Assembly (NCBI GenBank): GCA_019358915.1
Contig: JAHHIM010000055.1
Coordinates: 64,001 to 128,000, forward strand
From: Trichormus sp. ATA11-4-KO1
Lineage (GTDB): Bacteria > Cyanobacteriota > Cyanobacteriia > Cyanobacteriales > Nostocaceae
DNA: 64,000 bases
Direction: 5' to 3'
Shown here one piece after another: positions 13,049 through 50,163 of this stretch; position 1 is the stretch's first letter; each line of letters opens with the position of its first letter. Under the pieces are notes generated by a model. It was not told where the DNA came from. It made no database searches and saw only the letters and a list, made by a program, of their open reading frames with translations. The translations under genes and the position numbers were made by a program.

Positions 13049-13707
13049 CTTGTGTGATATATTTATAGATATTGCCATAATTAATTATAATTAAAACACT
13101 GAGTAGAAAATAAATTCTTGTTCTTTTTGTTTAGATAAATTGAACTTTTGTAATTATTCTAAATTCCCAATTTTATTGCTACTTCAAGCTGTATCGACGA
13201 GATAATACCCGTTTTTTGTTTTATAAATTTCCTAATGTATTAGGGTATACCGGGATAAATCAATATCAGCTTTTATGCGATTTGGACACATCCCATAGGA
13301 AGATGACTAACCACAAAAATAATAGGTAAATTAATCCGGGATGTTGTTATGCACTGGATTTATAGTGAGGTTTGGTGATGAGCCAAACCTCTTTTATTAT
13401 TCCTATATAAAAAATATTTGGATAAATTCAAGAAAATACAGGAGAGAGAGGGCAAACCCCATACAGAAATGTAGAGTCTTGATATCAGGGTAAGCGGATC
13501 TAATTTTGTAGTGCAACATTTCATTTGATTTAAGAATTTCTCAAGAAATGCTGGTAAGGAACATAGAATTTTTCTGTAAATTGACTTAAAAAAATCTAGT
13601 TAGGGAAGCTTATCTTAAAATCTTCTAGGCAATATCATCAAAGCGGGAGTATAAAAGAAACAATAACAAGCAAAACATACTCTCTGGCTTAACTGAGAAC
13701 TACAATA

Positions 13708-21300: not shown

Positions 21301-21373
21301 GGGGAATTAGCTCAGCTGGTAGAGCGCTGCGATCGCACCGCAGAGGTCAGGGATTCGAGTTCCCTATTCTCCA
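21301..21373 (+). tRNA. trnA: tRNA-Ala(CGC), probable prophage integration site
   Basis: GGGGAAT/ATTCTCC acceptor with G3-U70, anticodon loop ATCGCAC; phage genes start 64 bp downstream. Confidence 0.93.
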
Positions 21374-21436
21374 TTTTGACATTAAATGTTAGCTTTATTA
21401 ACCCCGCTTGCTGTCCTAATGTTGTCTTAAAGAATA

Positions 21437-41581: not shown

Positions 41582-41992
41582 ATGTTTGGTTTAGGTATTG
41601 CTAAGACGGCTTCAGGTATCGCTAAGACGGTAACAGGTAAGGTAAAGGATTTTAGGGGTGTGCTTGCTACTAACCCAGGGGCTTTAGGGTTAGCGCTACC
41701 ACCGCAAGTGCAACTTGGCATTAATGTAGCAAACTCCCTGGGACTTAAAATACCTTCGGCAGACGTGCTGAGTAAGCAAGTGATGTCGGAGTTAGACAAA
41801 GCAGTATTCGGGTTGTATCGTCCTAGCACTAAAGACCTTCTCAATGGTCTTAAAGGTAGAGTTAGCACTACCCCTGGATTAGACCAGTACTTGGAACAGT
41901 TAAGAAAGTCGGGTAACAGTACCCTAGATAAGATAGAAGAGGCTACCAATACCGCAGAAGACCTCCTATCATCTATTAACTGGTTACTTTAA
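41582..41992 (+). CDS. Phage hypothetical protein (probably late/virion)
   Basis: 136 aa; preceded by TGACTGAATA motif at 41549. Confidence 0.55.
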   Translation: MFGLGIAKTASGIAKTVTGKVKDFRGVLATNPGALGLALPPQVQLGINVANSLGLKIPSADVLSKQVMSELDKAVFGLYRPSTKDLLNGLKGRVSTTPGLDQYLEQLRKSGNSTLDKIEEATNTAEDLLSSINWLL

Positions 41993-42559
41993 CATCCACT
42001 GGGTATCCTTAAACTCAAACATCCTAGGCTTGTTACCCCACTGTGATACGTAAGCCATCCATACCTCACCGTGTATATTTAAATACCCGCAGTGAGGTGT
42101 ATTAGACTTACTATCGGGGTATATTTTTTTACACAACTCCTGGATATGGTGCCGTACTTTAGCTAAGTTATGTAGCTTTTCGGTGATGTGAAAGCTCACA
42201 TACTCGGATAAACCAGGTTTAAGTTTACCGTTTTCATAACCACCATACCTTACAAGGGTTGCTTGTCTAGTTATCTCCCGTGTTTCTGTTTGGTAGAACT
42301 TACTGGCAGCAGCTAACCTGTGACATGCAGGTACTACTACCTCTATGTAGTGTTTTATCCACCATAGGCACTGCTTATAAAATCGTACTTTTTTAGTGTT
42401 ACCCCGATTCTCGTTTAGTGTGGTTAGATCGGCGTACTTATCCCATATTTGGTGAAGTTTGGCTACTTTATTTTTATCCTTCTTAGCCGCTTGTACAGCC
42501 CCCCGGATGTCTAAGGGTAGCTGACCCCAGTTAGTATCATTCTCATTGTTACGAGTCAT
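41984..42559 (-). CDS. Basic hypothetical protein downstream of the ncRNA unit
   Basis: 191-aa ORF starting 23 nt after the tRNA-like RNA on the same strand. Confidence 0.65.
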   Translation of the reverse strand: MTRNNENDTNWGQLPLDIRGAVQAAKKDKNKVAKLHQIWDKYADLTTLNENRGNTKKVRFYKQCLWWIKHYIEVVVPACHRLAAASKFYQTETREITRQATLVRYGGYENGKLKPGLSEYVSFHITEKLHNLAKVRHHIQELCKKIYPDSKSNTPHCGYLNIHGEVWMAYVSQWGNKPRMFEFKDTQWMLK

Positions 42560-42581: not shown

Positions 42582-42657
42582 TGGAGCTAAAGGGAATCGA
42601 ACCCTTGTGCTAATGGTTTCACTTTGGCTTTACCACTAGACGACACCTACTAGCCCC
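42582..42657 (-). ncRNA. tmRNA tRNA-like-domain-only RNA (alanine acceptor, no D-stem, no tag ORF)
   Basis: GGGGCTA-GTAGGTGTCGTC-TAGTGGT-(14-nt loop)-ACCATTA-GCAC-AAGGG-TTCGATT-CCCTT-TAGCTCC-A; G3-U70, A73, canonical T-arm. Confidence 0.7.
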
Positions 42658-42665
42658 TTAGTGCT

Positions 42666-42702
42666 TAGTGATTTAAAGTAGCCCGAATACTTTAAACCAC
42701 TA
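42666..42702 (-). other. 15-bp hairpin separating the large RNA from the tRNA-like RNA
   Basis: TAGTGGTTTAAAGTA-TTCGGGC-TACTTTAAATCACTA; its one non-WC pair is G-U only on the minus strand. Confidence 0.7.
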
Positions 42703-42704
42703 GG

Positions 42705-43287
42705 CTATACCTTGACCCAGCCTCACCTCTAGCTTGGCTTTCAAGTCTCGGTATATTCACCTTTGGTTTTCCTTGGCTTTACTCAGGCTAGAGGACACTG
42801 AATAAAGACTTACTTGGTAGACCTTAGGTACTTTGTAAATGTAGATGATTTTTTAGGTCGAAGTCTACAGCTCCTTGACTTATGCGGCAAAGCGTCAACC
42901 ACTTTTACGTCCCCCGCTAACGGCTACTTACGTAAGCAGCTACCGCCCATGTATGAAAGTTCTGAGTACTTTGCCCTTATCGTGGGCTACTCTGAGAGTA
43001 CCTTATTTTACTAGCATTAATACTCCCAACGCGCTAGTGTCCCCTGAGTTATTTAATGACCGACAGGTTAGGTCTAATAGCGCTACCTGTAGTTGAGAGT
43101 ACAGGCTTTACGGTTAGCTGAGGCTCTGTCTTTGTCTTAGATTTGGTAGTCTAACCAGCCCTACTAATCCCCAACCGTAAATATTTGCTTTATTCACATC
43201 CAGACTCTGTAGCTCTCGCCGTTCTTTGATGTGGAGGGGTCACCAAACCCTCGCGCGCTATATGAGTTAGATTTCTCTCCCTCACCC
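42705..43287 (-). ncRNA. Large (~580 nt) highly structured non-coding RNA, ROOL/GOLLD-like
   Basis: Own promoter, no credible same-strand ORF, many local and long-range helices (43171-81/43107-17, 43228-33/43195-200, 42997-43003/42826-32, 42864-69/42840-45, 42787-94/42726-33, 42750-55/42706-11). Confidence 0.65.
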
Positions 43288-43291
43288 TTTT

Positions 43292-43320
43292 ATAATAACA
43301 AGGTTTTCTAAGACTGTCAA
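43292..43320 (-). promoter_or_regulatory. Sigma70-type promoter for the ncRNA unit
   Basis: Minus strand TTGACA(43320-43315)-17 bp-TATTAT(43297-43292). Confidence 0.7.
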
Positions 43321-46884: not shown

Positions 46885-49800
46885 TTATACTAACATACTT
46901 AGTAACTGGCTAGGGGTTACTGTGTAACCTATGGGTAACCCTTGGGGCTGGCTAGGTGTTATTTGGGGGTCTTTAGGGTCTTTACGGAGGCAAAAAGGGT
47001 CTACGTCTACCGCAGAAAACCAAGCTACACCCGCCGGGATACAGTCTAACGACAAGGCGTCAATAAATGCGGCTCTAACGTATAAGTGGGCTAGTTGTAA
47101 TGCCCAAATAGCATTTCTGATGTTATTGGGGTCATCTCCCACCATCGTCCTAATCTCATCGTGGATGGTTATCAGAAGTTTCCCGTCTACTCCTAGTTTC
47201 TTATAGAAGTGTCTAGTTAGTAGGATTAACATATCTCTGAAGTCTACACCGGAACTCTGAATAGTCCAGTTTACTCTAGATGGTTTGAAGTCTTTAAACC
47301 CTGCTAGTGACCTACTCATTACATTTTTGAGTAAAGGTGTCTTGGGTACCTTGGAGTCCGCTATGGATTCCATAACGTTAAACGAATCCGATGCTAACCC
47401 CCCTGTGTACCTCTTGAAGCTTCCTAACGCCCCTTCTTCCCTTACGGTTTGACCCTTGAACTTATTGATAAATACTTTACTGTTAGCCTGTGCCTCAGCT
47501 AATGTCATTGTGGGGATGTTCTTTAGAAGCGCGTTAGTATCCCCGGTTAGCCCCTGTCCATAAATGCAGTTACCTGTGATAGTTATTGTGTCACCTTGAC
47601 GCATAACCCAAGTACCTAAAGCTGTAGTAGGACACCATACGGATGTGTTCTCAATGCGAGTTTTAACTAACCTCTGAGCAGTTATGTGCGGCTTGGTTAA
47701 GTTCATTTTTTGGACTTTATTACCGTATCTTGTACCAACAGAAACTCTGTAACCAATCAAATAAGCCGCTAGTTTAAAAGCTTCTGCATGATGCCCCATT
47801 TTCTGAGTTATGCACCAAGTGCCAGTGGCTCGATCTTGATGTCCATCACTAAGTAAAACCCCTAATACAAAAGATTGTAGCTCCCTGTAAGACATTTTCA
47901 GGATCTCCGGTATGTAGTCTGTGCCGTATTTAACCCCAAAAGACTTAAGACCATAACCTGAGCCGCCATTATAAGGGGCTGACACGGTTATATTATTTTC
48001 TTGTTTTATGTTATCTGTGGTGAATATCTGAAATATTGTGTATCCTTCCTTAACTCCTAGCTTCCTTACACGCTTAGACCCATACCATCTGTGATCACCT
48101 GTGCAAACTACAGACCACCCATGACTCATTTCTAACTTATACACCTCAGCGTCTTCGTGATATGTCATATGGGTTATAGGAGACCATTCATTAACCCCTG
48201 TTTCTGCGTTGTAGGCTAATATTTCTGTCCCATGAGATAACTCTGAGTAAACCCTCCAACCTTCTCTAGTCAGCGCTTGAGTATCCATTGGAACACAACC
48301 ATACACCCTGGTCTTAGTATTGTCTCTACTGATACCAGTCTCTTTCGCCATTAAGCTATGAATGTCTGTGGACGCTTCTAAGGTCTCAGCCTTAGCCCCC
48401 GCCACACAAATAAAGCCCATAGGAGTACTTGCATTAATACCTAACACTGAATCACCCATAATGCCCGCTAACCACGCTTCTTCACTGTCAATGTCCGCAC
48501 CTACAAGCACATAACCTTTAGGTGGGGCTACCATAGATTTAAGCTCGGTACCTAAGCGAGACTTTTTAGGGTTAGCCGCTACCTGCCAAAGGTTGTCGGC
48601 ACATCTCCCTGTTATGGTGCCGTTAACAAGTAACGAGGGTAGGGTGACAGGGAAACCTTCAGGCGATTCAGTATGGATGGCGGCTACTCGTTTACGTAAA
48701 CTTACCCAGTTTATTGTAGACACCTTTTCAGCTAACATCTGCTTTACTGAGTCATTAGCCGCACTAAGTACACCCTGTTCAAACGCTGCAACAAAGCCCT
48801 TAGCGAACACGGAGGTAACGTTTTTACCTCTAACTTCTGGATGTGGTAACCACCCGTGTACTTCTGTGTACCATGTTTTATTTTCATCATCCCAGAGCAA
48901 AGGCTCACCCCGCCAAGTTATCCCCATTACTATGGGCACAAAGCGCTTAGATAAGGTTAGGTCACCTTTGGCATAGTCAGATAGCACTTTACGGTACCAA
49001 GCGGGTAACCCTTTATTCTTCCCTGACTTCGCCGGATTCCAGTCTAACGCCAATGCTGGCTTAGGTAGGTTATCAGGGTCACACTGGGATAGGTATTCCT
49101 CCGCTAAAATCATCAAGTCTTTGTTAGTCTTTACGGCTAACTCTTGATACATATTCTCTGCGGTCTCGTAATACTTAGGAAACCTATCAGCATCTAAAGG
49201 TAACCAGCACGACCCTAATAAAATAGACCCGGACTGCGCGACTAAGCTAGGTCTATGGTTAAGGTACTCAGGGTAGAGTCTCTTGAATAGCTGTGCTGTA
49301 TGTAGCACATCTTCACAGCAATACCTGATAACCTCCAGCATGTTATCCCTAACCCAGGGTAGCCCGTCATTAACTATGTTATCTCTAACCCCTTTGTCTA
49401 GTGGTTTGTTAAAGAAGAACTCGTATACCGCAGATAAGCTGTTAGTTGCTGTCTCGCCCATCCAGTCTAGGTTAGTATCTTCGTCTAGATACAAGGGTCT
49501 TTGCTGGTTACTTAAACCACGGCATATTATCCACGCAGACATTAGGTCGAAGAATCGGTTACCCGTATCCTCCATCTGGTACTCAGATGATAAATAAGCT
49601 CTGTCATACTGAGTGTTGTAGTTTACCATTAGGTTATTAAAACCGTAGGGGATAATAGAGGGCATCTGGTCGAAGTCGGTAACCCAAAGTAGCCAACCCC
49701 TAGCAGACATAGCCACAGCGCAAGTAGGTAACCACCTATCCCCCACTTGCACCGTTTCAGTATCTTGGAAGAACACCTTCCCAGATATTGGCTTTTCAAG

Positions 49801-50163
49801 GAGTTTCCATCGCTCACCTTTAGGGCACCAGTATTGCCATTTCCCTTTAATGGTATTGAAGTTAGTGGGTAGTTCTGGGAACTCCCAAGACATAATAGAA
49901 CCTAACGCGTCAAGAGTACTCTTAGTATGTTCTGCGATCGCTTGCTCCAGTTCTTGTTCCAGCGTACCAAAGTTATCAGGGATAGGTAGTTCTGCAACTT
50001 CGTTATTGTCATTGGCTTGATGAAGCCCGAACGGCTTTAGTTTATTTTCTATTTTCTGTTTATCTAGAATACTTAAGGGATTTGAAGGGTAACCCAATAC
50101 CCTTACTTGAAGATCATCGGAAAGCTTTTTAATGTGCATTGGTAATCCTGGTTTATACAACAT
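46885..50163 (-). CDS. Family A DNA polymerase, mitochondrial Pol gamma-like, with intein
   Basis: DTET, NTQYDRA exo motifs; GTITGR, LGTELKSMVAPPKGYVLVGADIDSEE (motif A), SRVNWTIQSSGVD, TIHDEIR (motif C), FSAVDVD..LRK parallel Pol gamma. Confidence 0.92.
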   Translation of the reverse strand: MLYKPGLPMHIKKLSDDLQVRVLGYPSNPLSILDKQKIENKLKPFGLHQANDNNEVAELPIPDNFGTLEQELEQAIAEHTKSTLDALGSIMSWEFPELPTNFNTIKGKWQYWCPKGERWKLLEKPISGKVFFQDTETVQVGDRWLPTCAVAMSARGWLLWVTDFDQMPSIIPYGFNNLMVNYNTQYDRAYLSSEYQMEDTGNRFFDLMSAWIICRGLSNQQRPLYLDEDTNLDWMGETATNSLSAVYEFFFNKPLDKGVRDNIVNDGLPWVRDNMLEVIRYCCEDVLHTAQLFKRLYPEYLNHRPSLVAQSGSILLGSCWLPLDADRFPKYYETAENMYQELAVKTNKDLMILAEEYLSQCDPDNLPKPALALDWNPAKSGKNKGLPAWYRKVLSDYAKGDLTLSKRFVPIVMGITWRGEPLLWDDENKTWYTEVHGWLPHPEVRGKNVTSVFAKGFVAAFEQGVLSAANDSVKQMLAEKVSTINWVSLRKRVAAIHTESPEGFPVTLPSLLVNGTITGRCADNLWQVAANPKKSRLGTELKSMVAPPKGYVLVGADIDSEEAWLAGIMGDSVLGINASTPMGFICVAGAKAETLEASTDIHSLMAKETGISRDNTKTRVYGCVPMDTQALTREGWRVYSELSHGTEILAYNAETGVNEWSPITHMTYHEDAEVYKLEMSHGWSVVCTGDHRWYGSKRVRKLGVKEGYTIFQIFTTDNIKQENNITVSAPYNGGSGYGLKSFGVKYGTDYIPEILKMSYRELQSFVLGVLLSDGHQDRATGTWCITQKMGHHAEAFKLAAYLIGYRVSVGTRYGNKVQKMNLTKPHITAQRLVKTRIENTSVWCPTTALGTWVMRQGDTITITGNCIYGQGLTGDTNALLKNIPTMTLAEAQANSKVFINKFKGQTVREEGALGSFKRYTGGLASDSFNVMESIADSKVPKTPLLKNVMSRSLAGFKDFKPSRVNWTIQSSGVDFRDMLILLTRHFYKKLGVDGKLLITIHDEIRTMVGDDPNNIRNAIWALQLAHLYVRAAFIDALSLDCIPAGVAWFSAVDVDPFCLRKDPKDPQITPSQPQGLPIGYTVTPSQLLSMLV
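47569..48297 (-). mobile_element. Intein (243 aa) in polymerase motif B
   Basis: YG|CVPMDTQALTREGW ... TGDHRW (block B) ... VWCPTTALGTWV ... TITGN|CIYG; LAGLIDADG-like FVLGVLLSDG. Confidence 0.9.

Follow-up and report, generated by a model that had tools for sequence, protein, structure and literature searches.

Forms of tmRNA that lack the message and retain only the tRNA-like domain (TLD) are already published, in phage DS6A and in two plastids (accessible text of PMC4131195 and PMC11915505). The same texts cite Mao 2009 for the inhibition of tmRNA by a DS6A-like RNA, and PMC4131195 states that this inhibition was seen whether the RNA was chargeable or not. CDS-less tmRNAs have furthermore been described in organelles, namely in jakobid and oomycete mitochondria and as genes of about 65 bp in Mallomonadaceae plastids (PMC11915505, accessible text). 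SmpB contacts the TLD at U17, C18, G19 and A334 (PMC8363625) and, in vitro, a TLD fragment supplemented with SmpB makes polyalanine independently of any template (Shimizu and Ueda 2006, cited in PMC3929946). In the part of the literature searched, no paper dealt with cyanobacterial copies of the TLD or with a phage family of wide distribution.

The gene described here lies in a prophage of the cyanobacterium Trichormus sp. ATA11-4-KO1 (genome G000). The window, i.e. the whole stretch of 64,000 nucleotides analysed, corresponds to G000:C55:64001-128000, and the prophage spans 46.6 kb (C55:85326-131981). Its left end is marked by an att core of 61 bp (21326..21386, plus strand) within a tRNA-Ala(CGC) gene, the integration target, at window positions 21301-21373; the partner repeat (G000:C55:131921-131981) lies beyond the window and adjoins an integrase-like frame. 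Terminase, DNA polymerase A and an M23 tail protein are encoded inside the prophage. The DNA polymerase A (window 46885-50163) has a mitochondrial-type exonuclease domain and, by eye, an intein-like insertion, and the host part of the window contains a match to the Rfam family cyano_het_sRNA (13338-13393).

The TLD-only gene is located on the minus strand at 42582..42657 and measures 76 nt up to the discriminator, CCA being unencoded. Its acceptor stem consists of 7 bp, the 5' strand with G3 (42651..42657) pairing with 42583-42589, which provides U70, and position 42582 is the discriminator A. The next 11 nt (42640..42650), delimited by alignment to the Rfam consensus, form a D-loop-like strand with equivalents of the tmRNA residues U17, C18 and G19 and with a U, not an A, at position 20. 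It is followed by a P2a-like arm (42610..42639) whose 8 bp join 42639-42632 to 42617-42610 and whose 14-nt tip, the only sequence between the two P2a strands, replaces the message domain. A linker of 3 nt (42607..42609), matching that of DS6A, carries the A334 equivalent and a C at position 333. A T-arm of 5 bp with a 7-nt loop (42590..42606) completes the structure. All pairs are intact (acceptor 7/7, arm 8/8, T-stem 5/5); there is no D-stem, nor does the 76-mer contain an anticodon-type 5-bp stem closing a 7-nt loop. Mapped via the Rfam consensus, the SmpB-contact bases U17, C18, G19 and A334 are all kept, and the consensus A20.G333 elbow pair is replaced by U.C. The gene folds with a z of -3.29, and 1 of 200 shuffles was equally stable. 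A point against the TLD is that the 76-mer, folded by itself, has a minimum-energy structure devoid of the T-arm; compared with this minimum, TLD-like folds cost 0.4 kcal/mol and the strict tmRNA topology 2.2 kcal/mol more.

This description refines that of the first-pass annotation, made from the letters alone. G3-U70, the discriminator A, the T-arm and the missing D-stem are all present in the sequence, as it had stated, although it had not mentioned that the gene is on the minus strand. It had also proposed an inner helix of 7 bp closed by a 14-nt loop, a single strand of 12 nt and a linker of 4 nt: the helix and its loop stand, but the helix has 8 bp and the strand 11 nt, since the first G of the supposed linker pairs with the last C of the strand and leaves 3 nt.

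Among Rfam families, the best match is tmRNA (RF00023), with 41.3 bits and an E-value of 7.6e-15 over model positions 1-374, of which 304 are deleted. In five relatives, the same model gives ordinary tRNA-sized matches about 20-30 bits. Since the score of the prophage TLD is below the RF00023 gathering score of 47, default scans miss it. A covariance model, R1, was trained on 22 viral-contig sequences with the prophage TLD excluded: the prophage TLD obtains 65.2 bits, DS6A 62.1 and the host tRNA-Ala(GGC) 27.7, within a range of 26.6-28 bits for tRNA-Ala. By R1 score, the prophage TLD ranks 23 of 56 among long-form members. ARAGORN made no call on the TLD, as tRNA or as tmRNA, at its default or at a 90% threshold; at 80% or less, it forces a 69-nt tRNA-Phe (42582-42650) that leaves out the true 5' acceptor strand. 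The check by ARAGORN and Rfam proposed beforehand thus came out silent for the former at the default and 90% thresholds, and with a tmRNA match below the gathering score for the latter.

Three other classes were considered and rejected. A canonical tRNA does not fit, as there is neither cloverleaf nor anticodon arm and ARAGORN calls one only at a relaxed threshold. Nor does a standard tmRNA (ssrA), the pseudoknots, resume codon and tag frame being all absent. In a permuted two-piece tmRNA (RF04321) the order would differ, whereas here the 5' acceptor strand precedes the T-arm in the standard order; the match to that model is limited to positions 36-99, through the T-arm, with 27.8 bits. The gene is in one piece of less than 100 nt, has both tmRNA termini with G3.U70 and the discriminator A, combines a P2a arm, a short linker and a T-arm, and scores on R1 near DS6A and apart from tRNAs. 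We conclude that the prophage element almost certainly belongs, as a phage representative, to the family of message-less tmRNAs reduced to the TLD. The first reading as a tmRNA TLD deprived of pseudoknots and tag is borne out by RF00023, by R1 and by the folds of the homologues.

TLD-only genes are common in viral contigs and phages. A pattern scan of viral contigs yielded at least 120 loci and, once the tRNA-Ala matches (L041, L042) and duplicates were removed, at least 100 distinct TLD-only sequences of 59-92 nt. In the 100 listed, the T-stem has 5/5 pairs in every case, three of these pairs being free in the pattern; the acceptor has 7/7 pairs in 97, the linker A is found in 97 and CCA is encoded in 27. 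The 20.333 elbow is A.G in 75 of the listed sequences, A.C in 14 and U.C in 1. This pair is variable across the family, hence the U.C of the prophage TLD is not taken as disqualifying. Covariation was examined in 56 hand-picked long-form sequences outside the R1 training set, in an alignment fitted by R1 and hence leaning towards it: paired cells amount to 95.3%, vs 65.9% after shuffling and 40-54% when the alignment is slid as a control. Double changes occur at each of the 7 P2a pairs in this model-fitted alignment of 56 sequences. When 20 sequences sharing the tip of the prophage TLD are aligned without fitting, the arm and the T-stem are predicted de novo and no D-stem, with double changes in 10 of 17 pairs; the inner acceptor pairs are not recovered because the rows from outside the window lack one base at their 5' end. 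Homologues folding as standard cloverleafs had been named beforehand as grounds for abandoning the TLD reading; they do not fold so.

The 14-nt tip is itself a subfamily motif, present at 70 loci (11 viral, 59 metagenome) that represent 51 distinct sequences. One of the 51 is identical to the prophage TLD, and the tip of the latter is identical in 4 other distinct sequences. In the 50 other subfamily sequences, G3.U70 occurs in 49 with G3 free in the pattern, and the A334 equivalent in all 50. To judge from these sequences, alanine identity is under selection in the tip subfamily. TLD-like genes also came to light in bacterial genomes. Eremiobacterota (Vulcanimicrobiota) have a uniform family of 72 nt, sometimes in tandem and with a different linker (L153, L154, L161, L163, L172, L178 and others), and Poribacteria a TLD-only form of 82-83 nt (L148, L151, L160, L209).

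We examined whether the prophage element could be a decayed tRNA-Ala or an att remnant resembling a TLD by chance. Both of its acceptor strands are those of the host tRNA-Ala(GGC). Furthermore, a DNA search with the 761-nt locus in 388-389 genomes of the family matched only 3' ends of tRNA-Ala(GGC), a gene used by two related prophages (G377 and G647, with a different gene order; L135, L145), and relaxed ARAGORN, as mentioned before, forces a tRNA call. Against these points, the R1 score of 65.2 bits is far from the 27.7 bits of the host tRNA, both ends of the TLD are present and the tip motif is common to 50 other sequences with covarying stems. The TLD is not an att scar because it is set about 21 kb into the prophage, and the att core is in tRNA-Ala(CGC), not in tRNA-Ala(GGC). 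A decayed tRNA or att remnant is thus barely credible, and the R1 score and the covariation largely refute it. The acceptor strands of the TLD differ from those of the host tmRNA, so that a deletion derivative of the host ssrA is not the origin either.

Closer kin of the locus are scarce. A DNA search of the TLD locus against annotated phages returned T-arm matches only, and a protein-anchored search of viral contigs a single contig, identical to the prophage and hence not independent. No TLD was found in three related cyanobacterial prophages (G377, G071 and G647); the G647 genome has one on another contig, not in its prophage. The absence from these three prophages indicates that the TLD is dispensable for this phage group.

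Upstream of the TLD, a sigma-70-type promoter candidate matching 11 of 12 positions (43292..43320, minus strand) belongs to a prophage-wide family: an 11-mer typical of it recurs 20 times with no more than 1 mismatch (window 22004-58917). Most copies of this family have an inverted-repeat operator overlapping the -35 box; in the copy upstream of the TLD, the right half-site is degenerate. By its sequence, the candidate is likely to be the start of the TLD transcript. Between both elements extends a leader of about 630 nt without long reading frame (42658..43290, minus strand), for which no homologue was found among the fetched loci and no Rfam family. Folding that clearly surpasses shuffles is confined to its last 150 nt (z of -5.6 for 42661-42780), and most 120-nt segments of the leader do no better than shuffles. 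A large conserved ncRNA in the leader, also considered, is unsupported given the lack of Rfam family and homologue and the mostly shuffle-like folding. Downstream, an orphan frame of 191 aa (41984..42559, minus strand) starts 22 nt after the TLD, is probably on the same transcript and gave no Pfam, PHROG, homologue or usable structural (Atlas) match.

Traces of repetition precede the TLD. An 18-bp hairpin (42663..42705, minus strand) ending 5 nt before it may possibly be a decayed copy of its 5' half, a weak suggestion given that, out of 1000 shuffles, about 3-8% attain its alignment score of 33. The arm-tip core recurs in three further copies, one of them within a partial copy of the arm (42733..42798, minus strand), which are perhaps decayed duplicates, again weakly: the partial arm copy scores 39, and of 1000 shuffles 13 reach 36 and 5 reach 40. 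No extra tip-core copies were found upstream of the 50 other subfamily sequences, and no second complete TLD upstream of this one in a search with filters off.

These traces bear on the idea of a drifting passenger, i.e. a family member acquired by the prophage, now decaying and without present function. The weakly supported decayed copies speak for it, together with the U.C elbow shared with 1 of the 100 other sequences listed, the three related prophages devoid of TLD and the orphan nature of its neighbours. However, every acceptor, arm and T-stem pair is intact, the R1 score of 65.2 bits ranks 23 of 56 among long-form members, the tip is identical in 4 other distinct sequences and the promoter match is intact, so that we consider a mere passenger distinctly unlikely. 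The position of the TLD between a 630-nt leader and a reading frame on one likely transcript would alternatively suit another tRNA-like use, either as an RNase P/CCA processing signal between leader and orphan gene or as a decoy for tRNA nucleases. The tRNA genes found within 1.5 kb of 16 of 78 viral loci are compatible with both. But acceptor and T arms would suffice for processing, whereas conservation across the family extends to the D-loop bases specific to tmRNA, to the linker A and to the P2a arm, and anticodon nucleases would find no anticodon loop, which leaves the decoy idea of the first-pass annotation unsupported. Such uses are very unlikely, a little more so than a drifting passenger.

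The host genome contains genes for a full tmRNA (G000:C54:17673-18061) and SmpB and an RqcH-type gene; two RF-1-domain genes only were found, and no ArfB with that query.

Relatives of the prophage TLD are found in cells of the same host family. Using R1, with 31 candidates scored per genome, a TLD-only version of 81 nt, with scores of 46-57 bits, was detected in at least 17 of 150 other Nostocaceae genomes; in a phylum-wide sample of 150 genomes, one carried it. The full tmRNA is kept in 5 of 5 carriers tested. We examined 20 loci: the gene opens a small operon with a TrcR-type box at 14 of them and stands in long tRNA arrays after tRNA-Glu at the other 6. The box is the motif described at the trcR promoter in PMC10272220, matched at these loci with 2-4 mismatches within 200 nt; 1 of 1000 random host windows contains it, and the 14 loci are kin, not independent events. 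In the small operons (L180, L274, L277-L288), the box is followed by the TLD-only gene and further genes, which at most loci comprise degenerate tRNA-like genes, a frame of 66-69 aa and one of 240 aa. In G000 and G005 comes then a vWA-domain protein of about 480-500 aa, for which Pfam recognises vWA only and which, we presume, may be Ro60/TROVE-like.

One of the six tRNA arrays is the trn operon of Nostoc PCC 7120, in which the 81-nt gene (NC_003273.1 51739-51819, L290:3102-3182, minus strand; 53.2 bits) is unannotated and sits between tRNA-Glu(TTC) and tRNA-Tyr. According to published accounts, ribosome antibiotics switch this operon on and TrcR acts as its repressor; the words 'tmRNA', 'ssrA' and 'tRNA-like' are absent from the main texts of PMC8421152 and PMC10272220. 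The small operon of our host (C64, L301:7250-7600) has lost its TLD through a clean deletion of 171-213 nt. The coincidence of this loss with the prophage copy may be due to chance. The prophage TLD is not an orthologue of the 81-nt genes because it lacks a TrcR-type box (the best match in the 843 nt before it has 7 mismatches) and has a different tip.

These observations lead us to tentatively favour, at somewhat less than an even chance, a mechanism in which alanylated, SmpB-bound TLD RNA replaces tmRNA on non-stop ribosomes and adds alanine without tag. The RNA would be transcribed from the phage promoter at 43320. Maturation of tmRNA involves RNase P and CCA addition, and here an RNase P cut and 3' trimming would free the TLD RNA, CCA being then added. 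Alanine would be charged by virtue of G3.U70 and A73, host SmpB would bind the elbow and, with EF-Tu, the TLD would occupy the vacant A site of non-stop ribosomes where tmRNA would otherwise enter. The nascent chain would be transferred onto the alanine of the TLD; there being no message, neither tag nor stop codon would follow, and the chain would be released with one or few alanines after subunit splitting or by another rescue route. While the phage is expressed, SsrA tagging and free SmpB would both decrease. That the RNA might sequester SmpB or provide alanine without a tag had been suggested at the outset, and both ideas agree with the conserved SmpB-contact and alanine-identity bases and, by analogy, with the published statements on the DS6A-like RNA and TLD fragments. 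The tmRNA, SmpB and RqcH-type gene of the host also speak for this mechanism. The rare U.C elbow, the absence from three related prophages and the lack of ArfB by our query count against it.

The same RNA could also act as a pure SmpB sponge, in which case titration of SmpB would destabilise the host tmRNA and switch off trans-translation, ribosome entry being unneeded. The inhibition of tmRNA by the DS6A-like RNA regardless of charging favours such simple titration and goes against ribosome entry, and the conserved SmpB-contact bases and the strong candidate promoter match suit a sponge as well. A sponge has no obvious need for alanine identity, however, and G3.U70 is kept in 49 of 50 sequences with G3 free. 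It is moreover hard to see why cells would keep a pure inhibitor in stress operons beside an intact tmRNA, and the presence of the same family in this translation-stress setting weakens any purely anti-host reading. A pure sponge thus appears unlikely, and a charged RNA that enters the ribosome is preferred because alanine identity seems selected and because of the stress-operon setting.

A broader proposal, which we regard as doubtful, is that message-less tmRNAs are a regular tool of translation stress and not just a means of phage sabotage, adding, when bound to SmpB, template-free alanine or short poly-alanine on non-stop 70S ribosomes as a third route between trans-translation and ribosome-associated quality control (RQC). 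If so, Nostocaceae would keep TLDs under TrcR and in the antibiotic-induced trn operon of PCC 7120, and the prophage would supply a TLD to a host that has lost one from its chromosomal operon. Should the mechanism proposed above be true, an RNA of 76 nt would let phages tune both ribosome rescue and protein tagging of their host. The added value of the present work is the cyanobacterial link, with Nostocaceae carriers in settings tied to translational stress. Its most valuable lead lies outside the window, in the unannotated TLD of the well-studied PCC 7120 stress operon. As PCC 7120 is a laboratory strain with published trn and trcR mutants, whether the TLD is an inhibitor or a helper is directly testable. 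Current annotation overlooks TLD-only genes because ARAGORN does not see them and their Rfam scores stay under the cut-off.

Compared with known systems, the inferred template-independent addition of alanine to stalled chains recalls RqcH/RqcP quality control (PMC11633108, accessible text). In RQC as described there, a protein works with tRNA-Ala on 50S subunits after splitting, whereas the targets of the TLD and SmpB would be non-stop ribosomes in the 70S state. CDS-less organellar tmRNAs share the lack of a tag frame, and their presumed role is to deal with incomplete mRNAs together with SmpB (PMC11915505); they are, however, the sole tmRNA of their organelle, while a full tmRNA coexists here. 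With standard tmRNA (RF00023), the prophage TLD has in common the acceptor with G3.U70 and A73, the stemless D-loop, P2a, the linker and the T-arm, but it lacks about 300 nt that comprise the pseudoknots, the resume codon and the tag frame. The 81-nt Nostocaceae genes belong to the same TLD family and the same host family, yet they are cellular or plasmid-borne, associated with a TrcR-type box or tRNA arrays, and have a different tip. The closest counterpart is the TLD of the Mycobacterium phage DS6A (JN698994, 28478-28557; accessible text of PMC4131195, Table 2, and PMC11915505), of 80 vs 76 nt and the same architecture, with G3.U70, a P2a arm with an A-rich tip, the same linker and CCA unencoded. 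Both score alike, with 62.1 bits for DS6A vs 65.2 for the prophage TLD on R1 and 43.2 vs 41.3 on RF00023. DS6A differs by belonging to another tip subfamily and by its A20, giving an A.C elbow where the present TLD has a U, and the latter follows a long leader and belongs to a prophage integrated into a cyanobacterial genome.
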